In this document: piece by piece, positions 8,455-62,800 of the stretch | Layout: the number at the start of each line of letters is the position of its first letter | Numbering within the stretch: the first letter of the stretch is position 1 | Assembly: GCF_011045215.1 (NCBI RefSeq) | Contig: NZ_CP049201.1 | Length of the DNA stretch: 64,000 bases | Source: Escherichia coli | GTDB lineage: Bacteria; Pseudomonadota; Gammaproteobacteria; Enterobacterales; Enterobacteriaceae | Direction: 5' to 3' (one strand) | Made by a program: the position numbers and the translations under genes | Notes under the pieces: model-generated | Databases searched by the model: none | What the model was told of the DNA's origin: nothing | What the model saw: the letters and a program-made list of their open reading frames with translations, nothing else

Positions 8455-8568
8455 GGGGGCTCTGTTGGTTCTCCCGCAACGCTACTCTGTTTACCAGGTC
8501 AGGTCCGGAAGGAAGCAGCCAAGGCAGATGACGCGTGTGCCGGGATGTAGCTGGCAGGGCCCCCACCC
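8455..8568 (+). ncRNA. ffs: 4.5S RNA (SRP RNA)
   Basis: Sequence reads GGGGGCTCTGTTGGTTCTCCCGCAACGC...GGAAGGAAGCAGCCAAGGCAGA...GGGCCCCCACCC, matching the 114-nt 4.5S RNA including the conserved domain IV loop; located between atl and ybaA. Confidence 0.93.
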
Positions 8569-13260: not shown

Positions 13261-16413
<3,153 letters not shown>

Positions 16414-16432: not shown

Positions 16433-17626
16433 TTAAGACTTGGACTGTTCAGGCTGAGCACCGCTTGCGGCTTGCTGGTTATTATCAGCGGTAACTTCTT
16501 GTGCTTTTACCTGGACACCAGGACGCACTTTCTGCAGCCCACTTATTACTACGCGATCGCCTGCTTTCAGACCTTCTGTCACCAGCCACTTATCGCCAAT
16601 AGCCTGGCTTGCAACGATCGGACGGGTTTCCACTTTGTCATCCGCGCCAACTACCAGTACGGTGGCATCGCCACGCGGCGTACGGGTTACGCCCTGTTGC
16701 GGGACTAAAATAGCGTTTGGATTAAGCCCTTCTTCCAGACGTGCGCGCACGAACATACCCGGCAGCAGAGTGTGATCCGGGTTCGGGAAGATAGCGCGTA
16801 GGGTGATAGACCCAGTGGTCTGATCAACGGTAACGTCAGAGAATTCCAGCGTACCGTCCTGCGGGAACTTAATGCCGTCACTGGTGATCAGCGACACTTT
16901 GGCTTTGCCGTTCTCTTGTTTCAGCGTGCCATTCGCCAGTTCCTGTTTCAGGCGCAGGAAGTCGTTGCTGGACTGGGTCACATCAACGTAGATCGGATCA
17001 AGTTGCTGCACGGTTGCCAGCGCAGTCGCCTGACCGTTCTGTACCAATGCGCCTTCCGTCACGTTCGACTTACCAATGCGACCGCTAATCGGAGAGGTTA
17101 CTTTGGTGTAAGCCAGATTGATCCGCGCAGTTTCAACAGCAGCTTTCGCCGCAGTTACCGCAGCATTCGCCTGTTGCGCATCAGCCAGAGCCTGATCGTA
17201 CTCTTGCTTACTGATGTACTGAGTACCGAGCAGTTTCTGATAACGATTCACCGTCAATTGCGCGATATTGGCTGCAGCCTGGGCTTTCGCCAGATCACCT
17301 TTCGCACTGTCGTATGTCGCCTGATAGGTCGCAGGATCAATCTGATAGAGAGAGACACCTGCTTCGATGTCGCTACCTTCTTTGAAATTACGCTTCAGGA
17401 TAATCCCGCTAACTTGAGGACGAACTTCTGCGATCCGGTAGGCACTGGTGCGACCCGGAAGCTCGGTTGTGATCTGCAGAGGTTCAGTTTTGACTGTTAC
17501 TACGCCAACGGCGGGCATCTGCTGGCCACCTTGTTGGGCCTGTTTGTCGTCACATCCTGTTAGGGCTAAGCTGCCTGAGAGCATCAGAACGACCGCCAGA
17601 GGCGTAAACCCTCTGTTTTTGTTCAT
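16433..17626 (-). CDS. acrA: periplasmic adaptor (membrane fusion) protein AcrA
   Basis: Track ORF 16433-17662; lipoprotein start MNKNRGFTPLAVVLMLSGSLALTGC at the internal Met (17626). Confidence 0.95.
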   Translation of the reverse strand: MNKNRGFTPLAVVLMLSGSLALTGCDDKQAQQGGQQMPAVGVVTVKTEPLQITTELPGRTSAYRIAEVRPQVSGIILKRNFKEGSDIEAGVSLYQIDPATYQATYDSAKGDLAKAQAAANIAQLTVNRYQKLLGTQYISKQEYDQALADAQQANAAVTAAKAAVETARINLAYTKVTSPISGRIGKSNVTEGALVQNGQATALATVQQLDPIYVDVTQSSNDFLRLKQELANGTLKQENGKAKVSLITSDGIKFPQDGTLEFSDVTVDQTTGSITLRAIFPNPDHTLLPGMFVRARLEEGLNPNAILVPQQGVTRTPRGDATVLVVGADDKVETRPIVASQAIGDKWLVTEGLKAGDRVVISGLQKVRPGVQVKAQEVTADNNQQAASGAQPEQSKS

Positions 17627-17715
17627 ATGTAAACCTCGAGTGTCCGATTTCAAATTGGTCAATGGTCAAAAGTTAATAAACCCATTGCTGCGTTTATATT
17701 ATCGTCGTGCTATGG

Positions 17716-17739
17716 TACATACATTCACAAATGTATGTA
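17716..17739. promoter_or_regulatory. AcrR operator (24-bp palindrome) in the acrA-acrR divergent promoter region
   Basis: Inverted repeat tacatacattcacaaatgtatgta between the divergent acrA and acrR starts. Confidence 0.8.
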
Positions 17740-17767
17740 AATCTAACGCCTGTAAATTCACGAACAT

Positions 17768-18415
17768 ATGGCACGAAAAACCAAACAAGAAGCGCAAGAA
17801 ACGCGCCAACACATCCTCGATGTGGCTCTACGTCTTTTCTCACAGCAGGGGGTATCATCCACCTCGCTGGGCGAGATTGCAAAAGCAGCTGGCGTTACGC
17901 GCGGTGCAATCTACTGGCATTTTAAAGACAAGTCGGATTTGTTCAGTGAGATCTGGGAACTGTCAGAATCCAATATTGGTGAACTAGAGCTTGAGTATCA
18001 GGCAAAATTCCCTGGCGATCCACTCTCAGTATTAAGAGAGATATTAATTCATGTTCTTGAATCCACGGTGACAGAAGAACGGCGTCGATTATTGATGGAG
18101 ATTATATTCCACAAATGCGAATTTGTCGGAGAAATGGCTGTTGTGCAACAGGCACAACGTAATCTCTGTCTGGAAAGTTATGACCGTATAGAACAAACGT
18201 TAAAACATTGTATTGAAGCGAAAATGTTGCCTGCGGATTTAATGACGCGTCGCGCAGCAATTATTATGCGCGGCTATATTTCCGGCCTGATGGAAAACTG
18301 GCTCTTTGCCCCGCAATCTTTTGATCTTAAAAAAGAAGCCCGCGATTACGTCGCCATCTTACTGGAGATGTATCTCCTGTGCCCCACGCTTCGTAACCCT
18401 GCCACTAACGAATAA
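17768..18415 (+). CDS. acrR: TetR-family repressor AcrR
   Basis: 215-aa ORF with N-terminal TetR HTH ([22 protein letters not shown]). Confidence 0.95.
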
Positions 18416-24098: not shown

Positions 24099-26030
24099 AT
24101 GAGTTATCAGGTCTTAGCCCGAAAATGGCGCCCACAAACCTTTGCTGACGTCGTCGGCCAGGAACATGTGCTGACCGCACTGGCGAACGGCTTGTCGTTA
24201 GGGCGTATTCATCATGCTTATCTTTTTTCCGGCACCCGTGGCGTCGGAAAAACCTCTATCGCCCGACTGCTGGCGAAGGGGCTAAACTGCGAAACCGGCA
24301 TTACCGCGACGCCGTGCGGCGTGTGCGATAACTGTCGTGAAATCGAGCAGGGGCGCTTTGTCGATCTGATTGAAATCGACGCCGCCTCGCGCACCAAAGT
24401 TGAAGATACCCGCGACCTGCTGGATAACGTCCAGTACGCTCCGGCGCGTGGTCGTTTCAAAGTTTATCTCATCGACGAAGTGCATATGCTGTCGCGCCAC
24501 AGCTTTAACGCACTGTTAAAAACTCTTGAAGAGCCGCCGGAGCACGTTAAGTTTCTGCTGGCGACGACCGATCCACAGAAATTGCCGGTGACGATTTTGT
24601 CGCGCTGTTTGCAATTTCATCTCAAGGCGCTGGATGTCGAGCAAATTCGCCATCAGCTTGAGCACATCCTCAACGAAGAACATATCGCTCACGAGCCGCG
24701 GGCGCTGCAATTGCTGGCACGCGCCGCTGAAGGCAGCCTGCGAGATGCCTTAAGTCTGACCGACCAGGCGATTGCCAGCGGTGACGGCCAGGTTTCAACC
24801 CAGGCGGTCAGTGCGATGCTGGGTACGCTTGACGACGATCAGGCGCTGTCGCTGGTTGAAGCGATGGTCGAGGCCAACGGCGAGCGCGTAATGGCGCTGA
24901 TTAATGAAGCCGCTGCCCGTGGTATCGAGTGGGAAGCGTTGCTGGTGGAAATGCTCGGCCTGTTGCATCGTATTGCGATGGTACAACTTTCGCCTGCTGC
25001 ACTTGGCAACGACATGGCCGCCATCGAGCTGCGGATGCGTGAACTGGCGCGCACCATACCGCCGACGGATATTCAGCTTTACTATCAGACGCTGTTGATT
25101 GGTCGCAAAGAATTACCGTATGCGCCGGACCGCCGCATGGGCGTTGAGATGACGCTGCTGCGCACGCTGGCGTTCCATCCGCGTATGCCGCTGCCTGAGC
25201 CAGAAGTGCCACGCCAGTCCTTTGCACCCGTCGCGCCAACGGCAGTAATGACGCCAACCCAGGTGCCGCCGCAACCGCAATCAGCGCCGCAGCAGGCACC
25301 GACTGTACCGCTCCCGGAAACCACCAGCCAGGTGCTGGCGGCGCGCCAGCAGTTGCAGCGCGTGCAGGGAGCAACCAAAGCAAAAAAGAGTGAACCGGCA
25401 GCCGCTACCCGCGCGCGGCCGGTGAATAACGCTGCGCTGGAAAGACTGGCTTCGGTCACCGATCGCGTTCAGGCGCGTCCGGTGCCATCGGCGCTGGAAA
25501 AAGCGCCAGCTAAAAAAGAAGCGTATCGCTGGAAGGCTACCACTCCGGTGATGCAGCAAAAAGAAGTGGTCGCCACGCCGAAGGCGCTGAAAAAAGCGCT
25601 GGAACATGAAAAAACGCCGGAACTGGCGGCGAAGCTAGCGGCAGAAGCCATTGAGCGCGACCCGTGGGCGGCACAGGTGAGCCAACTTTCGCTACCAAAA
25701 CTGGTCGAACAGGTGGCGTTAAATGCCTGGAAAGAGGAGAGCGACAACGCAGTATGTCTGCATTTGCGCTCCTCTCAGCGGCATTTGAACAACCGAGGTG
25801 CACAGCAAAAACTGGCTGAAGCGTTGAGCACGTTAAAAGGTTCAACGGTTGAACTGACTATCGTTGAAGATGATAATCCCGCGGTGCGTACGCCGCTGGA
25901 ATGGCGTCAGGCGATATACGAAGAAAAACTTGCGCAGGCGCGCGAGTCCATTATTGCGGATAATAATATTCAGACCCTGCGTCGGTTCTTCGATGCGGAG
26001 CTGGATGAAGACAGTATCCGCCCCATTTGA
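24099..26030 (+). CDS. dnaX: DNA polymerase III subunits tau (full length) and gamma (by frameshift)
   Basis: 643-aa ORF, AAA+ clamp-loader Walker A GTRGVGKTS; the internal slippery site yields gamma. Confidence 0.97.
   Translation: MSYQVLARKWRPQTFADVVGQEHVLTALANGLSLGRIHHAYLFSGTRGVGKTSIARLLAKGLNCETGITATPCGVCDNCREIEQGRFVDLIEIDAASRTKVEDTRDLLDNVQYAPARGRFKVYLIDEVHMLSRHSFNALLKTLEEPPEHVKFLLATTDPQKLPVTILSRCLQFHLKALDVEQIRHQLEHILNEEHIAHEPRALQLLARAAEGSLRDALSLTDQAIASGDGQVSTQAVSAMLGTLDDDQALSLVEAMVEANGERVMALINEAAARGIEWEALLVEMLGLLHRIAMVQLSPAALGNDMAAIELRMRELARTIPPTDIQLYYQTLLIGRKELPYAPDRRMGVEMTLLRTLAFHPRMPLPEPEVPRQSFAPVAPTAVMTPTQVPPQPQSAPQQAPTVPLPETTSQVLAARQQLQRVQGATKAKKSEPAAATRARPVNNAALERLASVTDRVQARPVPSALEKAPAKKEAYRWKATTPVMQQKEVVATPKALKKALEHEKTPELAAKLAAEAIERDPWAAQVSQLSLPKLVEQVALNAWKEESDNAVCLHLRSSQRHLNNRGAQQKLAEALSTLKGSTVELTIVEDDNPAVRTPLEWRQAIYEEKLAQARESIIADNNIQTLRRFFDAELDEDSIRPI
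25382..25393 (+). promoter_or_regulatory. dnaX programmed -1 ribosomal frameshift site (A AAA AAG heptamer plus shifted-frame stop)
   Basis: AAAAAAG at 25382-25388 lies in the dnaX frame as A AAA AAG; the -1 frame reads AAA AAA GAG TGA; upstream SD-like AGGGAG and downstream GC stem-loop (ccggcagccgctacccgcgcgcggccgg). Confidence 0.9.
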
Positions 26031-29826: not shown

Positions 29827-29957
29827 TCAAGCCGCAGCAGATCTGCTTTCGGGCAGGTCTGCTCATCCTCCTCAGGCAATACCTCTTACAGCAATTAGTT
29901 CTTCTTCCTCACTTTTCCGCTACAATTATCAACAAGTTGAATCGATAAGAGGCGGTA

Positions 29958-39107: not shown

Positions 39108-39191
39108 ACACCGTCGCTTAAAGTGACGGCATAATAATAAAAAAATGAAATTCCTCTTTGACGGGCCAATAGCGATATTGGCCATTTTTTT
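39108..39191 (+). ncRNA. chiX: small regulatory RNA ChiX (MicM/SroB)
   Basis: Sequence ACACCGTCGCTTAAAGTGACGGCATAATAATAAAAAAATGAAATTCCTCTTTGACGGGCCAATAGCGATATTGGCCATTTTTTT: 5-prime hairpin, A-rich seed region, terminator hairpin plus U-run; located in the ybaK-ybaP intergenic region where ChiX is encoded. Confidence 0.85.
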
Positions 39192-40484: not shown

Positions 40485-41030
40485 CGTAGGCCGGATAAGG
40501 CGTTCACGCCGCATCCGGCATCCGAGCACCATTGCCTGATGCGACGCTTACGCGTCTTATCAGGCCTACAAACCTGTGCCTGAACCGTAGGCCGGAGAAG
40601 GCGTTCACGCCGCATCCGGCATCCGAGCACCATTGCCTGATGCGACGCTTACGCGTCTTATCAGGCCTACAAACCTGTGCCTGAACCGTAGGCCGGAGAA
40701 GGCGTTCACGCCGCATCCGGCATCCGAGCACCATTGCCTGATGCGACGCTTACGCGTCTTATCAGGCCTACAAACCTGTGCCTGAACCGTAGGCCGGAGA
40801 AGGCGTTCACGCCGCATCCGGCATCCGAGCACCATTGCCTGATGCGACGCTTACGCGTCTTATCAGGCCTACAAACCTGTGCCTGAACCGTAGGCCGGAG
40901 AAGGCGTTCACGCCGCATCCGGCATCCGAGCACCATTGCCTGATGCGACGCTTACGCGTCTTATCAGGCCTACAAACCTGTGCCTGAACCGTAGGCCGGA
41001 GAAGGCGTTCACACCGCATCCGGCAGTCAT
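40485..41030. repeat. tandem array of REP-containing units (BIME-like), five full 101-bp copies plus a degenerate sixth
   Basis: Unit cgtaggccggagaaggcgttcacgccgcatccggcatccgagcaccattgcctgatgcgacgcttacgcgtcttatcaggcctacaaacctgtgcctgaac recurs starting at 40485, 40586, 40687, 40788, 40889 (period exactly 101 bp); generates the identical 76-aa track ORFs on the minus strand. Confidence 0.9.
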
Positions 41031-46075: not shown

Positions 46076-46412
46076 CACCTCTCTGTGCGCAGTACTTTCT
46101 GTACTGCGCCTTTGTCTTTAATTCAAATTACCTTTCTTATTCCTTTAATAAATAAGTCACAAAAAAATGATATATACGCGATAAATCTGTGATGCTAATC
46201 ACTTATTACCGTGGATTATTCTTAATGTGTATGATGGTAATCTAAAAGTCGTAGTGTATTCTAAATAAATAACGTATAAGCTTTTTAGCTGCATTTCTTT
46301 GCCCATATCAATGATCGACAAAAGAGATGCACAAGTTATTACCCTTCTTAATAAAATGAGACTGGTTATAAAAACCAGTTAAAATAATGACCTGGAAGGA
46401 AGTGACTTACCT

Positions 46413-47768
46413 ATGGCGCGATTCCAGTTTAAAAACCGTAAAAATAATGGACTTATTTTTTTAATAAGTTTTATGGTGATGGGAGAAGCTGCAATTGCTG
46501 CACCGCTGCCACAATGGGCGAATGCCCCAGCGGTAACGCCAGTTGCCCGATTATCTTTACAGGAAAGTATATTACGCGCCTTTGCGCGAAATCCCGACGT
46601 CACTCAACAGGCGGCGCAGATAGGCATTGGCGAAGCGCAAATTGATGAAGCCAAAAGTGCCTGGTATCCGCACGTTGGATTAACCGGCAACGCGGGGCCG
46701 TCCCGACAAACGGACTCCAGCGGCAGGCTTGATAACAACGTTTCGTATGGCATAACCCTGACACAACTGGTGTATGACTTTGGTAAAACTAACAACGATA
46801 TCAATCTGCAAACTGCCGCCCGTGACAGCTACCGCTTTAAATTGATGGCTACCTTAACCGATGTTGCAGAGAAAACGGCGACTGCCTATATGGAAGTCAG
46901 TCGTTATCAGGCTTTGTGCGATGCGGCTCAACGCAATATTCACTCGCTGGAAAACGTCTACAACATGGCGGCATTGCGCGCTAACGCTGGCCTGAACTCA
47001 TCGTCGGATGAATTACAGGCCCAGACGCGTATTGCCGGAATGCGCTCAACGCTGGAGCAATATCAGGCGCAGATGGCGAGCGCCAAAGCGCAACTGGCGG
47101 TGCTCACTGGCGTACAGCCAGAGGCGATAGCCGCGCCACCTGCTGAATTAGCCGAGCAGCCGGTATCGCTGAAGAATATTGATTACCAGTCCATCCCGCT
47201 GGTGCTGGCGGCAGAAAACTTACGCCAGTCAGCACAGTACGGCGTGGAAAAAACGAAAGCGCAATACTGGCCAACGCTCAGTATTCAGGGGGGTAAAACG
47301 CGCTACCAGACCAGCGACCGCTCGTATTGGGATGATCAGCTACAACTGAACGTTAACGCGCCGCTGTATCAAGGCGGCGCGGTTTCTGCCCAGGTGCAAC
47401 AGGCCGAAGGGCAACAAAAAATCTCTGCCTCGCAGGTCGAACAGGCAAAACTGGATGTGCTGCAACGAGCGTCTGTGGCATATGCGAACTGGACCGGCGC
47501 ACGGGGTCGCGAAGAAGCCGGTTTAGCGCAATCCGAAAGTGCGCACAAAACGCGAGATGTGTACCAAAATGAATATAAATTGGGTAAACGCAGTCTGAAT
47601 GATCTATTAACCGTCGAGCAAGATGTCTTTCAGGCGCAATCGGCTGAAATAAATGCCAATTATGATGGCTGGGTCGCCGCCGTAAATTATGCCGCTGCGG
47701 TGAATAACCTTATTCCTTTAGCGGGAATTAAACAGGGCTTATACAACGACTTACCCGACTTGAAATAA
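46413..47768 (+). CDS. TolC-family outer-membrane channel, probable type I secretion outer membrane protein
   Basis: 451-aa ORF with N-terminal signal-like hydrophobic segment (LIFLISFMVMGEAAIAAP); TolC-like composition and helical repeat pattern (LSLQESILRAFARNPDV, ...YDFGKT..., coiled-coil Q/A-rich segments); sits immediately upstream of the giant repeat protein gene; preceded by an AT-rich region. Confidence 0.7.
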   Translation: MARFQFKNRKNNGLIFLISFMVMGEAAIAAPLPQWANAPAVTPVARLSLQESILRAFARNPDVTQQAAQIGIGEAQIDEAKSAWYPHVGLTGNAGPSRQTDSSGRLDNNVSYGITLTQLVYDFGKTNNDINLQTAARDSYRFKLMATLTDVAEKTATAYMEVSRYQALCDAAQRNIHSLENVYNMAALRANAGLNSSSDELQAQTRIAGMRSTLEQYQAQMASAKAQLAVLTGVQPEAIAAPPAELAEQPVSLKNIDYQSIPLVLAAENLRQSAQYGVEKTKAQYWPTLSIQGGKTRYQTSDRSYWDDQLQLNVNAPLYQGGAVSAQVQQAEGQQKISASQVEQAKLDVLQRASVAYANWTGARGREEAGLAQSESAHKTRDVYQNEYKLGKRSLNDLLTVEQDVFQAQSAEINANYDGWVAAVNYAAAVNNLIPLAGIKQGLYNDLPDLK

Positions 47769-47870
47769 TCCTGCCATTATTAATAGTGGGCCGTTGTTAA
47801 GTGATTACCTTTGTCTTATTTAGATAAATGGACTCGCTAAGGATGTGCGCCATTTATCAGGAATGCTATT

Positions 47871-50800
47871 ATGAGCCTGATTATTGATGTTATTTCGCGT
47901 AAAACATCCGTCAAACAAACGCTGATTAATCCTGGCGACGTCACGGTTGTTATTTATGAGCCTTCCGTGGTGCAGGTTCATGCTCAGGCCTCTGCCGTTG
48001 CGCGTTACGTCCGTGAAGGAAATGACCTGCTGATCTATTTGCAGGACGGCACGGTGATCCGCTGCAACGGTTATTTCCTGCAAGCGGCGAATACAGCTGA
48101 ACAATCGGAACTGGTGTTTGCCGATGGTCAACAGCTAACCCATGTCACCTTCGCCGATACTGCTGCGGGTGGATTAGCCCCCGTAGAACTGACTGCCCAG
48201 ACCACTGCGATTGAAAGCATTGCGCCATTTCTTGATACCGTTGCTCAGACCAGCGCCTTCCCGTGGGGTTGGCTGGCGGGGGCGGCGGTAGGTGGCGGTG
48301 CGCTTGGTGCACTGCTGGCAAGCGGTGGCGATGGCGACTCGAAAACAGAAGTGATTAATAACCCTACGCCACCTGCTGAGCCTGGCAACGCCACACCATC
48401 ATTTTTAGTTACCGATAATCAGGGCGATCAGCGCGGCATTCTCGCCACCAATGACATCACCGATGACACCACGCCAACCTTTAGCGGCAGCGGGCAGGCG
48501 GGGGCGACTATTCAGATTAAAGACAGTAACGGCAATACTATTGCCAGTACTCAGGTAGACAACAACGGTCACTGGAGTGTCTCGTTACCCACGCAAAGTG
48601 CAGGTGAACATACCTGGTCAGTGGTGCAAATTGTCGGCAGTACCATCACTGACGCCGGTTCGATAACGTTAACCATCGACAATAGTCAGGCCAGCGTGCA
48701 GGTTGCCACCACCGCAGGCGATAACATTATTAACGCCAGCGAACAGGCCGCCGGGTTTACGCTTTCTGGCACCAGTAGCCATCTGGCACAGGGAACAGAA
48801 CTCACCGTCACACTTAACGGCAAAACCTACACCACCAGCGTAGGCGCTAACGGTGCCTGGAGCGTGCAGGTGCCGACCGCCGATGCACAGGCGTTAGGCG
48901 AAGGGAATCAGGCGGTACTGGTCAGTGGGAAAGACACCACAGGCAATACGGTCACCGGCGCGCAGCTGCTAACGGTCGATACCCAACCGCCAACGCTTGC
49001 CATCAACACCATCGCTCAGGACAACATCATCAGTGCTGCGGAACATAACGTCGCGCTGGTACTGAGCGGCACGTCGAATGCAGAAGCGGGGCAAACCGTA
49101 ACACTGACCGTCAACGGGAAAAGCCATACAGCAACCGTCGGTAGCGACGGAACCTGGCAAGTGACGCTGCCTGCCACGGAAGTCCAGGCACTGGCGGAGG
49201 GTAATTACGCTGTCAATGCCAGTGTCAGCGATCGGGCAGGGAACACCACCAGCCACAGCGCGAATCTCACGGTAGACACCTCAGCACCCGTGGTCAGTGT
49301 TAATACCGTGGCGGGCGACGATATTCTTAATAATGCCGAGCAGGCCGTCGCGCAGATCATCTCCGGACAAGTTAGCGGTGCTTCTCCTGGCGATACGGTA
49401 ACGGTGAAATTGGGCACTCATGTCCTGACGGGCATCGTGCTGGCAGATGGCAGCTGGAATGTGGCGTTGGACCCGGCGGTAACCCGCACGCTGGATCGCG
49501 GAGCCAATACGATTTTCGTCACCGTGACAGATGCTGCAGGAAATACTGGCGCGGCGTCTCGAGCAATCACGCTGGTCGGTGTTTCTCCGTTGATCACCAT
49601 TAACACCGTCTCCGGCGATGACATTATCAGTGGCGCAGAAAAAGGTGCGCCACTGACCCTTACCGGTAGCACTCAACAGGCTGAGACAGGACAAACCGTC
49701 ACAGTAACCCTGGCTGGACAGAGTTTTACCACTACCGTGCAGGCCGATGGCTCCTGGAGTCTGACGGTACCTGCCGCCGCGATGGGAAATCTGCCTGACG
49801 GCGCGGTGGCGATTACCGCTTCTGTGACGGATCTCAGCGGCAATACCGGCAACACCTCCCGCACCATTACCGTCGACAGCCAGGCCCCGGCCTTAAGCAT
49901 TGATCCACTGACCGCTGATAACATCATTAACGCCGCCGAAAGCGGGCAGGATCTGCCCATCACCGGCACCACCGACGCTCAGCCGGGGCAGACGGTGACC
50001 GTTACGTTAAATGGGCAGACGTATCAGGGCGTCGTGCAGCCAGACGGCACCTGGAGCGTGACTGTGCCCGCCGCCAACGTGGGCGCACTGGCTGACGGCA
50101 ACGCTACGGTCACCGCCAACGTGAACGATGTCGCCGGTAATCCGAGCAGCGTCTCACGCGTGGCGCTGGTCGATGCCACGCCGCCGGTGGTGACCATTAA
50201 TCCGGTGGCGACCGATAACGTCATTAACACGCCGGAACATACCCAGGCGCAAATCATCAGCGGTACGGTTACTGGCGCTCAGGCGGGCGATATCGTCACC
50301 GTGACGCTGAATAATGTGAATTACACCACGGTGGTGGATGGTTCCGGCAACTGGAGCCTGGGCGTTCCGGCCTCGGTGGTCAGTGGGCTGGCGGACGGCA
50401 GTTATCCTGTCAGCGTCTCGGTAACCGACAAAGCCGGAAACACGGGCAGCCAGTCACTGACTGTCACGGTCAATACCGCAGCGCCCCTTATCGGCATTAA
50501 CAGCATTGCGGGCGATGATGTGATTAATGCCAGCGAAAAAGGGGCCGATCTCCAGATTACCGGCACCAGCGATCAGCCAGTGGGTACCGCCATCACCGTG
50601 ACGCTCAACGGGCAAAACTATGCGGCGACGACCGATGCCTCCGGCAACTGGAGCGTCAACGTTCCGGCATCGGCGGTAACCGCACTGGGCCAGGCCAACT
50701 ACACGGTAACGGCGGCGGTAACCAGCGATATCGGCAACAGCACCACCGCCAGCCATAATGTGCTGGTCGACAGCGCGCTGCCCGGCGTGACCATTAACCC

Positions 50801-53800
50801 GGTGGCAACCGATGATATTATTAACGCCGCCGAAGCGGGCGTGGCGCAAACCATCAGCGGGCAGGTGACTGGAACCGCCGTTGGCGACGCGGTAACCGTG
50901 ACGCTGGGCGGTAATACCTACACCACCACCGTGCAGGCCGGCTTAAGCTGGAGCGTGGACGTTCCGGCGGACGCTATTCAGGCGCTGGGTAATGGCGATT
51001 TAACGGTTAATGCCTCGGTCACCAATCAAAACGGCAACACCGGCAGCGGCACGCGGGATATCACCATCGACGCCAATCTGCCCGGCCTGCGGGTCGATAC
51101 GGTGGCGGGCGATGATGTGGTCAATATCATCGAGCACGGGCAGGCGCTGGTGATTACCGGCAGCAGTTCGGGGCTGGCAGAAGGCACGCCGCTTACCGTT
51201 ACGATTAATAATGTGGAATACACCACTGCGGTGCAGGCCGATGGTAGCTGGAGCGTGGGCGTCACGGCGGCGCAGGTTAGCGCCTGGCCTGCGGGGACGG
51301 TTAATATTGCCGTGTCCGGGGAAAGTAGCGCCGGAAATCCGATAAGCATTACGCATCCGGTAACGGTGGATCTCACTCCGGCGGCTATCACCATCAACAC
51401 TATCGCCACGGACGATGTGATTAACGCTGCAGAAAAAGGGGCTAATTTAACTCTTTCCGGCACCACCACTAACGTAGAAGCAGGGCAAACCGTCACTGTC
51501 ACCTTTGGCGGTAAAAATTACACCGCCAGCGTGGCGGGCGATGGTAGCTGGACTGCCACCGTTCCCGCCGCCGATCTGGCGGCATTACCGGAAGGCAGCG
51601 CCTCCGCTCAGGCCAGCGTCAGCAATATCAACGGCAATAGCGCCTCGGCGGTGCATAACTACAGCGTCGACAGCAGCGCGCCAACCATCATTATCAATAC
51701 CGTCGCCAGCGACAATATCGTCAACGCCAGCGAAGCCGATGCGGGTGTGACGGTGAGCGGCAGCACCACCGCTGAAGCGGGGCAGATTGTTACGGTAACG
51801 CTCAATAGCCCGACCGTGCAGACGTATCAGGCAACGGTACAGGCGGACGGCAGCTGGAGCATCAATATTCCGGCGGCAGATCTTGAGGCATTGACCGATG
51901 GCAGCCACACCCTGACCGCGACGGTCAATGACAAAGCGGGCAACCCGGCGAGCACCACGCATAATCTGGCGGTGGATCTCACCGTCCCGGTACTCACCAT
52001 CAATACCATTGCGGGCGATGACATTATTAACGCCGCCGAGCACGGACAGGCGCTGGTGATTTCTGGTTCCAGCACAGGCGGAGAGGCGGGAGATGTCGTC
52101 ACCGTCACGCTAAACAGTAAAACCTACACCACGACGCTGGATGCCTCCGGCAACTGGAGCGTCGGTGTTCCGGCGGCGGATGTCACCGCGCTGGGTAGCG
52201 GCCCGCAAACCATCACTGCCAGCATTACCGATGCGGCAGGTAATAGCGACAGCGAAACGCACACGGTCACCGTTAACCTTACCGCGCCGACCATTGGCAT
52301 TAACACCATCGCCACCGATGACGTGATTAATGCCACCGAAAAAGGCGCAGATCTGCAAATCTCCGGCACCAGTAATCAGCCAGCGGGCACCACGATTACG
52401 CTGACGTTTAACGGGCAAAATTACACCGCCACGACGGACGCCGCAGGTAACTGGAGCACCACGGTGCCAGCCTCTGCCGTCGGTGCGCTGGGCGAAGCCA
52501 GCTACACGGTGACGGCGAACGTCACCGACAGCGCAGGCAACAGCAATTCCGCCAGCCATAACGTGCAGGTCAATACCGCGCAGCCTGGCGTCACCATTAA
52601 TCCGGTTGCGACTGACGATATTATTAACGCCGCCGAATCGGGCAATGCGCAAACCATCAGCGGTCAGGTAACGGGCGCGGCGGCGGGCGATACCGTCACC
52701 GTGACGCTTGGCGGGAAAACCTACACGGCTACCGTGCAGGGGAATCTAAGCTGGAGCGTGGATGTTCCGGCTGCGGATATTCAGGCCATCGGTAATGGCG
52801 ACCTGACTGTTAACGCCTCAGTGACCAACGGCGTTGGCAATACCGGCAGCGGTTCGCGAGATATTACTATCGACGCCAACCTGCCTGGCCTGCGCGTCGA
52901 TACCGTGGCGGGCGATGATGTGGTTAACAGCATCGAACACGGTCAGGCACTGGTGATAACTGGTAGCAGCAGCGGGCTGGCGGTGGGCGCGGCGCTGACG
53001 GTGGTGATCAATAACGTCACCTATGGCGCGACAGTATTAGCCGATGGCACATGGAGCGTTGGTGTTCCGGCGGTAGACGTGAGTAACTGGCCTGCGGGTA
53101 CGGTGAATATCACGGTAAGTGGCACTAACACAGCCGGAACAACATCCACCATTACCCATCCGGTCACCGTCGATCTGGCGGCGGTGGTGATTTCCATTAA
53201 CACCATCTCCGGCGATGATGTGATTAACGCCGCCGAAAAAGGGGCAGATTTAACCCTTTCCGGCAGCACCTCCGGCGTAGAGCCAGGGCAAACGGTCACC
53301 GTCACCTTTGGCGGCAAAACCTACACCGCCACCGTAGCAGGCGATGGTAGCTGGACAACCACCGTACCTGCCGCCGATCTCAGCGTGTTACGCGACGGCG
53401 ACGCCACGGTACAGGCCAGCGTCAGCACTATTAACGGCAACACGGCTTCGGCAACCCACGCTTACAGCGTTGATGCCACTGCCCCGACGCTTGCCATTAA
53501 TACCATCGCCACCGACGATATTCTGAACGCCGCCGAGGCGGGCAATCCGCTAACCATCAGCGGCAGTAGCACCGCTGAAGCGGGGCAGACGGTAACTGTC
53601 ACGCTTAATGGCGTGACTTACACCGGCACCGTCCTGGCGGACGGGAGCTGGAGCGTCAGCGTGCCGACGGCGGATCTCAGCAATCTGACCGCCAGCCAGT
53701 ACACCGTCAGCGCCTCGGTAAACGATAAAGCGGGTAACCCGGCATCCACCACTCACGGGCTGGCGGTGGATCTCACCGTGCCGGTGCTGACCATCAACAC

Positions 53801-56800
53801 CGTCTCCGGCGATGACATTATTAACGCCGCCGAACACGGACAGGCGCTGGTGATCTCCGGCTCCAGTACTGGCGGCGAAGCGGGCGATGTCATCACCGTC
53901 ACGTTAAACAGTAAAACCTACACCACCACGCTGGATGCCTCCGGTAACTGGAGCGTCGGCGTTCCGGCGGCAGATGTCACCGCACTTGGCAGCGGCCCGC
54001 AAACCATCACGGCCACGATTACGGATATCGCGGGTAATAGCGATGATGCTAGCCGCACGGTCACCGTAAATCTCACCGCGCCAACCATTGGCATCAACAC
54101 CATCGCCACCGATGACGTGATTAACGCCACGGAAAAAGGCGCGGATCTGCAAATTACCGGCACCAGTAATCAGCCCGCGGGCACCACCATTACGGTGACG
54201 TTGAACGGGCAAAATTACACCGCTACTACCGATAGCAACGGCAACTGGAGCGCCACGGTGCCAGCGTCAGCGGTTAGCACGCTGGGTGAAGCTAACTACA
54301 CGGTAACCGCGAACGTCACCGACAGCGCAGGTAACAGCAATTCCGCCAGTCATAACGTGCTGGTCAACAGCGCCTTGCCTGCCGTCACCATTAACGCGGT
54401 GGCGACCGACGATATTATTAACGCTGCCGAAGCGGGCAATGCGCAAACCATCAGCGGGCAGGTGACGGGTGCCGCGGCGGGCGACACGGTTACCGTTACG
54501 CTGGGCGGCAACACCTACACCGCTACCGTACAGGCTAATTTAAGCTGGAGCGTTAGCGTGCCAGCGGCGGATATTCAGGCGCTGGGCAACGGCGACCTGA
54601 CAATTAATGCCTCGGTCACTAACGTCGTCGGCAACACCGGCAGCGGCTCGCGCGATATCACGATCGACGCCAATCTGCCTGGCTTACGGGTCGATACCGT
54701 GGCGGGCGATGATGTGATTAACAGCATTGAGCACAATCAGGCGCTGGTGATCACCGGTAGCAGCACCGGGCTGACGGCGGGAACGGCGTTAACGGTCGAG
54801 ATTAACAACGTTACTTATGGCGCGACGGTGTTAGCCGACGGCACATGGAACCTCGGTGTTCCGGCGGCAGACGTCAGCAACTGGCCTGCGGGTACGGTGG
54901 ATATCACGGTAAGCGGCACCAACAGCGCCGGAACAACCTCCACCATTACCCATCCGGTTACCGTCGATCTGTCGGCAGTCGCCATCACCATTAACACTCT
55001 CTCTGGTGATGATGTGATCAACGCCGTCGAAAAAGGCGAAACGCTGGTCGTAAGCGGCAGCACCAGCGGTGTCGAAGCCGGGCAAACGGTGACCGTCACC
55101 TTTGGCGGCAAAAATTACACCACCACTGTGGAAGCTAACGGTAGCTGGACGGTGAACGTACCGCCTGCCGATCTCGCTGCGCTACCGGACGGTGCGGGCA
55201 ACGTGCAGGCGAGTGTCAGCAACATCAACGGCAATAACGCCCAGGCGGATCGTACGTACAGCGTCGATGCCACCGCGCCACTTGTGACCATCAACACCAT
55301 CGCCAGCGACGATATCCTTAACGTGAGCGAAGCTGGCGCGGGGATCACCATCAGCGGCACTACCACGGCGCAGGCCGGGCAGACGCTGACCGTCACGCTC
55401 AATAATAACACGTACCAGACCACGGTTCAGGCGGATGGCACCTGGAGCGTGAATGTTCCGGCAGCGGATTTAAGCGGATTAACCGCCAGCAGTTACACCG
55501 TGACCGCCACGGTGAGCGACAAAGCGGGTAACCCGGCAAGCGCCGACCACGCGCTGGCGGTGGACGTTACCGCACCGGATCTCACCATTAATACCGTCGC
55601 GGGCGATGACATTATTAATGCCATCGAACACGGTCAGGCGCTGGTCGTCAGCGGAACCAGCACGGGCGCGGCGGCGGGTGATGTGGTCACGGTTAACCTG
55701 AACGGTAAAAACTACACCACCACGCTGGATGCCTCCGGTAACTGGAGCGTGGGCATTCCTGCGGTGGATGTGACGGCGCTGGCAACCGGCAACCAGACCA
55801 TTACCGCCAGCCTGAGCGATCGCGCGGGCAACAGCGACAGCACGACTCACAATGTGACCGTTGATCTCAGCGGCCCGACGCTGACCATCAACACCGTCTC
55901 CGGCGATGACATTATTAATAATGCGGAGAAAACCCAGGACTTGATCATCAGCGGCGGCTCCAGCGGTCTGGCGGCAGGCACTACGGTCACCGTGATGTTG
56001 AACGGCCTGGCGTACAGCGCTACTACCGACGGCTCCGGCAACTGGAGCGTTACCGTGCCTGCTTCTTCGGTTGGCGCGCTCGGCGAGGCGGTGTATCAGA
56101 TTAGCGCCAGCGCCACCGACAGCGCGGGCAACAGTGGCAGCACCACCCATACGGTGAATGTCGAATCGCTCCTGCCTGGGGTAATCATTAATACCGTGGC
56201 GGGCGATGACATTATCAACGCCGCTGAAATCGCTGTGGCGCAGACCATCAGCGGTCAGGTCACGGGGACGGCGGTTGCGGGTAATACGGTGATTGTCACC
56301 ATTGGCGGCAATCAATATAACGCCACCGTGCAGTCAGATTTAAGCTGGAGCGTCAGCGTACCTGCGAACGTTTTGCAGGCGCTGGGCAACGGTGAACTGA
56401 CCATCAGCGCCTCGGTGACTAATTCCGCAAATAATACCGGCACCACAACGCACGACATCGTGATAGATGCCAACCTGCCAGGTCTGCGCGTCGATACCGT
56501 GGCAGGCGATGATGTGATTAACAGCATCGAGCACACTCAGGCGTTGGTGATCACCGGTAGCAGTAGCGGACTGGCGGCGGGCGCGGCGTTGACGGTGGTT
56601 ATCAATAGCGTCACCTACGGCGCAACGGTTTTAGCGGATGGTAGCTGGAGCGTTGGTGTTCCGGCGGCAGATGTCACAAACTGGCCTGCGGGGACGGTCA
56701 ATATTGCCGTCTCTGGCACCAACACCGCCGGAACGACAACCAGTATTACCCATCCGGTGACCGTCGATCTCGCAGCCGTGGCGATCACCATCAACACCCT

Positions 56801-59800
56801 TTCCACTGACGATGTGATTAACGCCGCCGAAAAAGGCAGCGATTTGCAGCTCTCCGGCACCACCTCCGATGTGGAAGCGGGGCAAACCATCACCGTTATC
56901 TTCGGCGGCAAAAGCTACACCACCACGGTTGCCGCGGATAATACCTGGGGGCTGACGATCCCTGCCGCCGATGTTGCAACCTTGCCAGACGGCGCAGCAA
57001 ACGTCCAGGCCAGCGTCAGCAATGTCGCAGGGAACAGCGCCCAGGCAACGCATGCTTACAGCGTTGATGCCACTGCGCCCTCCGTTACCATCAACACCAT
57101 CGCCACGGACGATATTCTTAACGCCGCCGAAGCGGGATCGGCGCTGACCATCAGCGGCACCAGCACGGCGGAAGCCGGGCAGACGGTGACCGTAACGCTA
57201 AACGGCGTTAATTACAGCGGCAATGTGCAGGCAGACGGGAGCTGGAGCGTCAGCGTCCCGACCGGCGATTTAGCTAACCTCACTGCCAGCCCCTATACGG
57301 TGAGCGCAGCGGTCAGCGACAAAGCCGGAAATCTGGCTTCGGCGACGCATAACCTGACGGTGGACCTTGCCGCTCCGGTCGTCACCATTAACACGGTGGC
57401 GGGCGATGACATCATCAACGCCACGGAACACGGACAGGCGCAGATTATCAGCGGCTCGGCAACGGGCGCGACGACGGGTAACACGGTTTCCGTGACGATT
57501 GGCACGACCACCTACGCCACTGTGCTGGACGCCAACGGCAACTGGAGCATCGGCGTACCTGCCAGCGTGATTTCCGCACTGGCGCAGGGTGATGTAACCA
57601 TTACTGCCACGGTTACCGACTCCGCAGGCAACAGTGGCACGGCTTCGCACATTGTCAGCGTGGCGCTCGGCGCGCCGATACTCAGCATTAACACCATTGC
57701 CGTCGACGACATCCTCAACGCCACGGAGAAAGGTGCAGATCTGGCGATTACCGGCACCAGCAACCAGCCCGCGGGTACGCAGATTACCATTACGCTCAAC
57801 GGGCAAAATTACACCACCACTGCCGATGCATCCGGGAACTGGAGCGTAACCGTTCCGGCGTCACGGGTCAGCGCCCTCGGTGAAGCCACTTATACGGTGA
57901 CTGCCGCCGCCACTGACACCGATGGCAACAGCGGTTCCGCCAGCCATAATGTGCAGGTCAATACCGCGCTGCCGGGCGTCACCATTAACGTGGTGGCGAG
58001 CGACGATATTATTAACGCCGCCGAAGCGGGCGCGGGCCAGACCATCAGTGGGCAGGTGACGGGTGCTGCGGCAGGCGATACCGTTACCATAACGCTCGGC
58101 GGAGCGACTTACACCGCTACGGTGCAGGCGAATTTAAGCTGGAGCGTCGATGTTCCGGCCTCCGCGCTACAGGCGTTGGGCAACGGTGAGCTGACCATTT
58201 CGGCCTCGGTAACGAACAGCGTGGGCAATACAGGTAACGGCACGCGCGAAATCACCATCGACGCGAATCTCCCTGGTCTGCGGGTCGACACCGTGGCGGG
58301 CGATGACGTGGTCAACATTATCGAGCACAATCAGGCGCTGGTGATTACCGGCAGCAGCTCCGATCTGGCAGCGGGCAGCAACGTCACGCTGACCATAAAC
58401 GGGCAAACGTATGTTGCGGCGGTGCTGGCGGATGGCTCATGGAGCGTCGGCGTTCCGGCGGCAGATGTCAGCGCCTGGCCTGCGGGGAAGGTCACAATTA
58501 CGGCGAGCGGCAACACCACCGCCGGAAACCCGGTGAGCGTTACGCATCCGGTGACGGTCGATCTCACTGCGGTGGCGGTCAGCATCAACGCCATTACTGC
58601 CGATGACGTGATTAACGCTGCCGAAAAAGGCGCGGCGTTAACGCTCTCTGGCAGCACTACTGGTGTGGAGGCCGGACAAACGGTCACCGTCACCTTTGGC
58701 GGCAAAACTTACAGCGCCACGGTGGCTGCGAATGGTTCCTGGAGCACCTCGGTTCCGGCGGCAGATATGGCGGCCCTGCGTGATGGCGATGCCAGCGCAC
58801 AGGCCAGCGTCAGCAATGTTAACGGCAACAGCGCCACCACTACCCACGCATACAGCGTCGATGCCAGCGCGCCAACGGTGACCATTAACACCATTGCGGG
58901 CGACGACATTCTTAACGCCGCCGAAGCCGGAGCGGCGCTAACCATCACCGGCAGCAGCACGGCGGAAGTGGGGCAGACGGTGACCGTCACGCTCAATGGC
59001 GCAAACTATACCGGCACTGTACAGACGGACGGCAGCTGGAGCGTCAGTGTGCCGCCAGCCGACTTAAGCGCTCTGACCGCCAGCAACTACACCGTTAGCG
59101 CGGCGGTGAGCGACAAAGCCGGAAACCCGGCCTCGGTTAACCACAACCTGACGGTGGATACTTCCGTTCCGGTCGTCACCATCAACACGGTGGCAGGCGA
59201 TGATGTGATCAACGCGACGGAACACGCCCAGGCGCAGATCATCAGCGGCTCCGCCACGGGAGCGGTAACCGGTAGCACCGTGACGGTGACTATCGGCACA
59301 AATACCTTTACCACGGTGCTGGATGCCAGCGGCAACTGGAGCGTCGGCGTCCCGGCAAGCGTCGTCTCGGCACTGGCGAACGGCACGGTGACCATTAACG
59401 CCAGCGTCACTGATGCCGGAGGAAACAGCGGCAGCACCACCCATCAGGTGACGGTCAATACCGGGCTGCCGACCATTACCTTTAACGCTATCAGCGGCGA
59501 TAACGTCCTGAACGCCGATGAAAAAGGCCAGCCGTTGACCATCAGCGGTAGCAGTACGGGGCTGGCGACGGGCGCGCAGGTTACCGTCTCGCTCAACGGT
59601 CACAACTACAGTGCTACCACCGACGCAGCAGGCAACTGGACCTTAACCGTGCCGGTGAGCGATCTGGCGGCTCTAGGCCAGGCCAACTATACCGTCAGCG
59701 CCAGCGCCACCAGTGCGGCGGGCAACACCGCCAGCAGCCAGGCGAATTTACTGGTCGACAGCGGCCTGCCGGGCGTCACCATCAACACCGTAGCGGGCGA

Positions 59801-62800
59801 CGATATTATCAACGCCGCCGAAGCGGGGGCCGATCAAACCATCAGCGGGGTGGTGACTCGCGCCGCCGCAGGCGATACGGTCACCGTGACGCTGGGCGGC
59901 AACACTTACACAGCGCAGGTTCAGGCCGATTTAAGCTGGAGCGTCACCGTTCCGGCAGCCGATTTCCAGGCGCTGGGCAATGGTGATTTGACCATTACCG
60001 CCTCGGTCACCAACGCGAATGGCAACACTGGCAGCGGCACGCGGGATATCACCATTGACGCCAACCTGCCTGGGCTGCGGGTGGATACCGTGGCGGGCGA
60101 TGATATCGTCAACAGTATCGAGCACGGGCAGGCGCTGGTGATCACCGGCGGCAGTAGCGGCCTGAATGCAGGTGCTGTGCTGACGGTTACCATCAACAGT
60201 GTGGCGTATTCCGCCACGGTACAGGCGGACGGGAGCTGGAGCGTCGGCATTTCGGCGGCAAGCGTCAGCGCCTGGCCTGCGGGGCCGTTAACCGTTGATG
60301 TGGCAGGACAGAGCAGCGCCGGAAATCCGGTCAGCGTCAGCCATCCGTTCACCGTCGATTTAACTTCGGTGGCTATCAGCATCAACACCGTTGCCAGCGA
60401 CGACGTAATTAACGCCGCCGAGAAAGGCACCGACCTGACCCTTTCCGGCAGCACCAGCGGGATTGAAAGTGGGCAAACCGTTACCGTCACCTTTGGCGGT
60501 AAAACCTACACCGCAAGCGTCGCCGCCAATGGAAGCTGGAGCGTAACGGTTCCGGCGGCGGATCTGGCAGCTCTGCCAGACGGCGCGGCGAACGTGCAGG
60601 CCAGCGTCAGCAGCGCGAGCGGCAATAGCGCCTCAGCGACTCATGCGTACAGCGTTGACGCCAGCGCGCCGACGCTCACCATTAACACCATCGCCAGCGA
60701 TGACATCCTTAACGCGGCAGAGGCGGGAAATCCGCTGACCATCAGCGGCACCAGCACCGCCGAAACCGGGCAGACGGTGACCGTCACCCTTAACGGCGCA
60801 ACCTACAGCGGTAATGTGCAGGCAGATGGTAGCTGGAGCGTCAGCGTTCCCACTTCAGCCCTGGGCGCGCTCACCGCAAGCAATTATACCGTCAGCGCCA
60901 CCGTCAACGACAAAGCGGGTAACCCCGGCAGCGCCAGCCATAATCTGGTGGTAGACACCACCGCGCCGGTTCTTACCATAAATACCGTGGCGGGCGATGA
61001 CATCATCAACGATGCCGAACATGCGCAGGCGCTGGTGATCTCCGGCACCAGTAGCGGCGGGGAAGCGGGCGATGTGGTGAGCGTTGTGCTCAACGGCAAA
61101 ACCTACACCACCACCCTGGATGCCTCCGGCAACTGGAGCGTCGGCGTTCCGGCGGCGGATGTTACGGCACTCGGTAGCGGTGCGCAGACCATCACCGCCA
61201 GCGTCAGCGATCGGGCAGGCAACAGCGACGACGCCAGCCGCACCGTCACCGTTAGCCTCAGCGCGCCAGTGATTAGCATCAACACCATCGCGGGCGATGA
61301 TGTGATCAACGCGACGGAAAAAGGATCCGATCTGGCGCTTTCCGGCACCAGCGATCAGCCTGCGGGTACGGCGATCACCGTCACGCTGAACGGACAAAAC
61401 TACAGCGCCACTACCGACGCCTCCGGCAACTGGAGCGTTACTGTGCCCGCCTCGGCGGTCAGTGCGCTGGGCGAAGCGACCTACAGCGTCACGGCGAGCG
61501 TCACCAATGCCCAGGGCAACAGCAGCACCGCCAGCCATAACGTGCAGATCAATACCGCGCTGCCGGGCGTCACCCTTAATCCGGTGGCGACGGACGATAT
61601 TATCAATGCCGCCGAAGCGGGCAGCGCACAAACCATCAGCGGCCAGGTAACCGGGGCGGCGGCGGGCAGTACCGTCACCGTTGAACTGGGCGGTAAAACT
61701 TACACCGCCATCGTCCAGGCTGATTTAAGCTGGAACGTGAGCGTACCAGCCGCCGACTGGCAGGCGCTGGGTAACGGTGAGTTAACCGTTAACGCCTCGG
61801 TCACCAACGCCGTTGGCAACACCGGCAGCGGCACGCGCGATATCACCATCGATGCCAGTCTGCCTGGCCTGCGGGTGGATACCGTCGCGGGTGATGATGT
61901 GGTCAATATCATCGAACACAGTCAGGCGCAGGTGATCACCGGCAGCAGCTCTGGCTTTGCGGCGGGCACGGCGCTGACGGTGGTGGTAAATAACCAAACT
62001 TACGCCGCCACGGTGCTGGCGAACGGCAGCTGGAGCGTCGGCGTTCCGGCGGCGGATGTCAGCAACTGGCCTGTGGGAACGCTGAATATTAGCGTTAGCG
62101 GCGCAAACAGTGCCGGAACGCAAACCAGCATTACCCATCCGCTGACTGTTGATCTCACGACCGTCGCCGTCAGCATGAACAGCATCACCAGCGATGATGT
62201 GATTAACGCCGCCGAAAAAGGCGCGGCGCTAACGCTCTCCGGCAGCACGTCTGGCGTCGAAGCGGGGCAAACCGTCACCGTCACCTTTGGCGGCAAAACC
62301 TACACCTCCACGGTGGCGGCTAACGGTAGCTGGAGCACCACCGTTCCGGTTGCGGATATGGCGGCGCTGCGTGACGGCGATGCCAGCGCCCAGGTGCGGG
62401 TGACTAACGTCAACGGCAACAGCGCCACGGCAACGCACGAATACAGCGTCGATAGCGCCGCGCCAACGGTCACCATCAACACCATTGCCAGCGATAACAT
62501 CATCAACGCCAGCGAAGCGGCGGCGGGCGTAACGGTGTCCGGCACCAGCACGGCGGAAACCGGGCAGACGCTCACCGTCACGCTTAACGGCACTAACTAC
62601 CAGACCACGGTGCAGGCAGACGGCAGCTGGAGTTTAACGCTGCCCGCCAGCGACTTAACCGCACTGGCTAATAACGGCTACACCCTGACCGCCACGGTCA
62701 GCGATCTGGCGGGTAACCCTGGCAGCGCCAGCAAAGGCGTGACCGTCGATACCACTGCGCCGGTGATCAGTTTTAACACCGTGGCGGGCGATGATGTGAT

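Follow-up and report, generated by a model that had tools for sequence, protein, structure and literature searches.

Escherichia coli has AcrAB-TolC as its main multidrug efflux pump, and the genes of the adaptor and permease, acrA and acrB, lie divergently from the gene of AcrR, a repressor of the TetR family whose helix-turn-helix is N-terminal. When AcrR is lost or its operator is damaged, more pump is made and antibiotic susceptibility decreases. The locus analysed here, which is part of a stretch of 64,000 nucleotides of E. coli DNA (contig NZ_CP049201.1, hereafter the window), thus raises the question of whether the control region between the divergent genes is in its wild-type state, and of how much this state can tell about efflux in the strain. 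An initial annotation, made from the sequence alone, placed the region at 17662–17767, expected the local repression of acrAB by AcrR to be intact, and argued that mutations of the operator or of acrR are a route to multidrug resistance. This rationale is backed by published work, in which mutations of either the operator or acrR derepress acrAB (10.1101/138248; PMC11642870). In an isolate of Klebsiella pneumoniae, the overproduction of AcrAB was associated with a single substitution (T to C) in the fifth base of TACATACATT, which is one of the two arms of the operator (10.1101/138248).

The limits of the control region depend on the starts of the flanking genes and on a regulatory site that overlaps one of them. 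These features are the following:

13261–16410, minus strand: acrB, RND multidrug efflux permease of 1049 aa (ORF; NCBIfam equivalog NF011706, 2421.8 bits, cutoff 2150)
16433–17626, minus strand: acrA, periplasmic adaptor lipoprotein of 397 aa (NCBIfam NF011604, 885 bits, cutoff 765)
17768–18415, plus strand: acrR, wild-type TetR-family repressor of 215 aa (NCBIfam equivalog NF007949, 419.3 bits, cutoff 271)
17768–17787, plus strand: marbox (site of MarA, SoxS, and Rob), ATGGCACGAAAAACCAAACA, found by its match to the consensus and equal to the first 20 nt of acrR

The left edge given in the initial annotation, 17662, is the upstream TTG at which the longest mechanical ORF, on the minus strand, starts. 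The true start of acrA is instead the ATG at 17626, because the resulting product (MNKNRGF...) fits the NCBIfam AcrA equivalog model end to end (residues 1–397 aligned to positions 1–397 of a model with 397 positions) and equals b0463 of K-12 in length and sequence. The intergenic DNA therefore starts at 17627, and the edge had been set 35 nt too far to the right. The true interval between the two divergent genes is 17627–17767, which makes 141 bp, the same as in K-12. The right edge at 17767 was also too narrow, since the control region runs on into acrR, whose first 20 nt are the marbox. The description of acrR as a full-length gene of 215 aa was accurate.

We aligned the region with the genome of E. 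coli K-12 MG1655. All 141 positions of the intergenic interval are identical to the b0463/b0464 region of K-12. The acrR gene shows two differences, at 18352 (Val195) and 18397 (Asn210), both synonymous, and the alignment of acrR and the intergenic region revealed no frameshift, truncation, or insertion sequence, which settles the comparison with K-12 that the initial annotation had proposed. The differences in the operon are also exclusively synonymous (3 nucleotides in acrA and 20 in acrB), so AcrA and AcrB have the same amino acid sequences as in K-12. The AcrR protein matches the E. coli protein whose structure was solved by crystallography (PDB 2QOP/3BCG) at 215 out of 215 residues. In summary, MG1655 has the same operator, promoter hexamers, marbox, and AcrR, AcrA, and AcrB proteins, and differs from the window at this locus only by synonymous substitutions in the flanking genes.

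This comparison extends to the species. Among the 5,423 complete E. coli genomes with a match, 5,419 have a 161-bp control region (marbox included) that is at least 99% identical to that of the window. When we took 25 evenly spaced rows of the ranking, 24 were 100% identical and the last one was interrupted by an IS481-family element. The longer segment made of the intergenic region and acrR (789 bp) was covered at 80% or more in one place in 5,383 of the 5,423 genomes; the remaining 40 were below this value. Because of this near-universal identity, we conclude that the window carries the default allele of the species. We regard it as very nearly certain that the region is the native acrR-acrAB divergent regulatory region of E. 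coli in its wild-type state; it is a fully known regulatory region in the reference state. The expectation that AcrR would repress acrAB locally is supported, as a prediction, by the identity to K-12. A disruption of the sort for which the initial annotation suggested screening can be seen in NZ_CP148461.1 (hit H65), where an IS481-family transposase lies between the operator and the start of acrR, at a point equivalent to about 17746 of the window.

The window as a whole is colinear with K-12 (467994–513896) up to 46103, just beyond the end of ybaT. The remaining part (46104–64000) is DNA that K-12 lacks at that position, where its sequence continues to cueR. In other E. coli, this part is annotated as encoding a TolC-family outer membrane protein (ORF 46413–47768) followed by the giant BapA-related adhesin siiEA, which extends past the end of the window. 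Among 5,426 complete genomes, the highest identity to it is only 95.7%. Within the colinear part, five tandem units of ~101 bp at 40489–40970 match the Rfam family naRNA4 (REP-type nucleoid-associated RNA), and their staggered BLAST matches to K-12 508581–508818 indicate more copies than in K-12. Downstream of adk, the gap between colinear BLAST blocks has 53 bp in the window (29828–29880) and 157 bp in K-12 (497821–497977), i.e., the adk-hemH intergenic region differs from that of K-12 by ~104 bp in length. Rfam matches also included the dnaX frameshift element (25363–25427), the sroB/ChiX sRNA (39108–39191), and the 4.5S SRP RNA encoded by ffs (8463–8559). These are expected features of K-12 and are consistent with its gene order.

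The key element of the interval is the operator, which lies between acrA and acrR:

17716–17739, unstranded: AcrR operator, with arms TACATACATT and AATGTATGTA and spacer CACA, equal to K-12 and to the published site

The sequence tacatacattcacaaatgtatgta (the same as TACATACATTCACAAATGTATGTA) is read at these positions, so both the element and its place between the divergent genes were correctly given in the initial annotation. Its description as a 24-bp palindrome holds for the arms, which the repeat search delimited at 17716–17725 and 17730–17739, with 10 nt each and 100% complementarity. It does not hold for the 4-nt spacer, which is not palindromic, and the element is thus an interrupted inverted repeat of the form TACATACATT-CACA-AATGTATGTA. 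The published AcrR site is 5'-TACATACATTTGTGAATGTATGTA, also given as its reverse complement TACATACATTCACAAATGTATGTA, and comprises two inverted repeats of 10 bp with 4 bp between them, to which AcrR was suggested to bind as a dimer of dimers (PMC10597343). The repeat of the window is exactly the reverse-complement form of this site.

We then assessed whether such a repeat could be a chance palindrome lacking any regulatory role. The region is rich in AT, and other short repeats in the vicinity, such as the direct repeat D1 (17753–17770), are at the level expected by chance. However, when we searched the 64-kb window with the pattern TACATACATTNNNNAATGTATGTA, which includes both arms and leaves the spacer free, we found a single occurrence even when allowing up to three mismatches, and none of 100 dinucleotide-preserving shuffles gave a match at the same tolerance. 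The binding of AcrR to the site is published (PMC10597343), and in other species the arms lie at a nearly constant distance from AcrR homologues, as detailed below. A chance origin has next to no probability given these data, and is effectively refuted by the combination of conservation and published binding. We thus keep the interpretation of the repeat as the AcrR operator.

In a scan that took a single genome for each species and required the exact arms but allowed any spacer, we found at least 120 loci in other species. Since this set was selected on exact arms, their conservation is true by construction, but the linkage to AcrR and AcrA and the spacing between elements are independent of the selection. 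An AcrR homologue starts at most 400 bp away in at least 115 of these loci (out of at least 120), and at least 107 of them combine it with a divergently oriented AcrA homologue. The operators of other Enterobacterales, of Aeromonas, and of Burkholderiales have the identical arms and adjoin an AcrR homologue and a divergent gene encoding an AcrA-like adaptor. The spacer varies (CACA, CATA, CGCG, CGCA, CAAG, and others). Both homologues align from residue 1 in 87 of the listed loci, most of them in Enterobacterales, and 81 of these 87 have an intergenic length of 139–144 bp. The commonest spacings among the listed loci put the near edge of the operator 28–30 nt from the start of acrR and ~90 nt from that of acrA.

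The loci of Aeromonas and of Betaproteobacteria differ from this pattern: their repressors are only 35–45% identical and their intergenic distances are longer. Exact arms next to AcrR homologues of 35–45% identity were found in Aeromonas, Acidovorax, Comamonas, Ottowia, Polaromonas, Silvimonas, and Oxalobacteraceae (loci L004, L011, L013, L017–L019, L021, L031, L047, L061, L068, and L077). In these loci, the DNA half-site is far more tightly conserved than the repressor protein.

We also considered the existence of a second, degenerate AcrR site at D1, which shares 78% identity with part of the operator. We rejected it: a rough estimate gives about one match of such quality by chance in a region of this size, and the columns 17747–17767 are poorly conserved across species.

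How the operator may control acrAB is suggested by its position relative to two hexamers identified by the promoter scan on the acrAB strand:

17712–17717, minus strand: candidate acrAB -10 hexamer, TACCAT (match to consensus)
17736–17741, minus strand: candidate acrAB -35 hexamer, TTTACA (match to consensus), separated from the -10 by 18 nt

This sigma-70-like pair, in which both hexamers are assigned by their match to the consensus, brackets the operator. The latter shares four bases with the -35 and two with the -10, and occupies the entire spacer of the candidate promoter, an arrangement that fits repression by promoter occlusion. Our search of the literature for transcription starts of acrAB or acrR, or for an acrR promoter, returned nothing, so we infer the start sites of both. 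That of acrAB would be near 17705, seven bases past the -10, in which case the operator would cover approximately -34 to -11. According to this scenario, AcrR would bind the 24-bp interrupted repeat, possibly as the dimer of dimers suggested in the literature, and would keep RNA polymerase off the acrAB promoter. A ligand at the C-terminal domain of AcrR would then cause its release from DNA, as described previously. For AcrR binding, ligand release, and the function of the marbox we rely on published work with the identical sequence of K-12; our analysis shows the sequence identity and positions of the elements, their uniqueness, and their conservation across species, as well as the identity of the proteins.

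This organisation resembles that of TetR and tetO, where a helix-turn-helix repressor encoded divergently from an efflux gene binds a palindromic operator in the promoter and is released upon binding of a ligand. AcrR shares with it the N-terminal helix-turn-helix, the divergent efflux operon, an operator within the candidate promoter, and the release by ligand. The systems differ in two respects: two dimers of AcrR are suggested to sit on a single 24-bp site, and acrAB is also driven by AraC-type activators through a marbox that lies inside the repressor gene.

The same operator could affect acrR. The promoter scan identified a candidate on the plus strand at 17673–17702 (TTAATA-N16/18-TATATT/TATTAT), and inspection by eye revealed an alternative, the extended -10 TGcTATGGT at 17708–17716. 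Since the operator is at, or just downstream of, either candidate, AcrR could repress its own gene, and bound AcrR probably does so. These positions also bear on whether the repeat has an additional role as RNA, besides that of DNA operator. It would then form a hairpin of 10 bp with a 4-nt loop in the 5' leader of acrR and affect the stability or the translation of the mRNA. This presupposes a start of acrR near 17709. The perfect complementarity of the arms is compatible with such a hairpin, and with the promoter-like site at 17673–17702 the start would precede the repeat. However, a start directed by the extended -10 would fall inside the repeat. Covariation is undetectable in the cross-species set, because it was selected on exact arms, and the binding of AcrR to DNA already accounts for the symmetry (PMC10597343). 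We thus regard an additional role at the RNA level as improbable.

On the other side of the operator, the DNA down to acrA contains two further features:

17627–17705, minus strand: putative 5' leader of acrA, with its extent set from the -10 hexamer
17681–17694, unstranded: conserved block CCCATTGCTGCGTT, from the 88-sequence alignment, within the acrA leader

The leader has a Shine-Dalgarno sequence, GAGG, at 17637–17634 and, next to this ribosome binding site, a TCGGA at 17647–17643. The latter matches a secondary CsrA site described in Salmonella (PMC5727465), the only genus where the binding of CsrA to the acrAB leader was shown (PMC5727465). The acrAB region of Salmonella Typhimurium has the same divergent layout with 141 bp (PMC5727465). 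The E. coli leader retains TCGGA, which contains its sole GGA, and lacks the primary CsrA site of Salmonella Typhimurium, AAGGA. We considered a structured leader in acrA and rejected it, as it found no support. Its predicted fold is no better than that of shuffled sequences (minimum energy of -11.5 kcal/mol, z = -0.73), and the 5' hairpin predicted around CCCATTGCTGCGTT keeps its three outermost pairs in only 45 to 53 of the 83 unique sequences, with no covariation. An Rfam scan of the whole window gave no RNA family in or near the control region.

The conservation of the primary sequence is another matter. The alignment of 88 sequences shows conserved blocks at 17629–17650 (ribosome binding site and end of the leader), at 17706–17715 (the -10 region), at the marbox, and at 17681–17694. 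The last one, CCCATTGCTGCGTT, lies between the ribosome binding site of acrA and the -10 of acrAB. Most of its columns are conserved in at least 95% of the 88 sequences, which represent many genera, and the others in at least 80%. This block is accounted for neither by the operator, nor by the marbox, nor by the promoter hexamers we identified, nor by a conserved hairpin. The slightly longer AAACCCATTGCTGCGTT (about 17678–17694), whose conservation concerns the primary sequence rather than a hairpin, is in the acrA leader and upstream of acrR. We tentatively raise the possibility, to which we give a rather low probability, that it is an undescribed regulatory element. It could be a binding site for a protein or for an RNA that acts on the expression of acrAB or acrR.

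The last element of the region is the marbox. The 19 informative positions of the consensus AYnGCACnnWnnRYYAAAYn match perfectly at 17768–17786, and this match is unique in the window, where 0.02 are expected by chance. The site is 26 nt upstream of the acrAB -35 hexamer and is highly conserved in the 88-sequence alignment. This agrees with the published acrAB marbox for MarA, SoxS, and Rob, which is the first 20 nt of the coding region of acrR (PMC11642870). MarA, SoxS, or Rob bound there would activate acrAB from a site centred ~72 bp upstream of the putative acrAB start, within the first codons of acrR. The location of the marbox inside acrR also implies that screens restricted to the intergenic interval would miss changes in it.

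The presence of this site raises the question of whether AcrR is the main determinant of acrAB expression. In the general model, the global activators drive acrAB and AcrR is a secondary modulator (PMC11642870). In line with this, high-level resistance to psoralen crosslinks required the inactivation of AcrR together with a retained marbox and one of the three activators (PMC11642870). Other factors act on the same DNA or on its transcript: CsrA on the leader in Salmonella (PMC5727465) and, according to the literature, YneJ/PggR on the acrA-acrR intergenic region. Furthermore, marRAB, soxRS, and rob are all outside the part of the window that is colinear with K-12 (467994–513896). We find it an even bet that MarA, SoxS, Rob, or other factors are the main determinants of acrAB expression in this strain, in which case the intact operator would not predict normal efflux. 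Such a control complements repression by AcrR at the operator instead of replacing it. It limits what the initial annotation could deduce from an intact operator, and leaves the identity of the elements unchallenged. Since the activators are encoded elsewhere, AcrR is described as secondary, and other factors intervene, the intact locus does not predict the efflux phenotype or the level of expression.

These results add nothing new to the biology of the acrAB system, whose control region is found here in its reference form. For annotation, they imply that the functional control region should be taken as extending from the ATG of acrA (17626) into acrR, so as to include the marbox in its initial 20 nt. 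For the strain, the presence of the reference alleles of the operator, the promoter, the marbox, and acrR removes one candidate mechanism of resistance.
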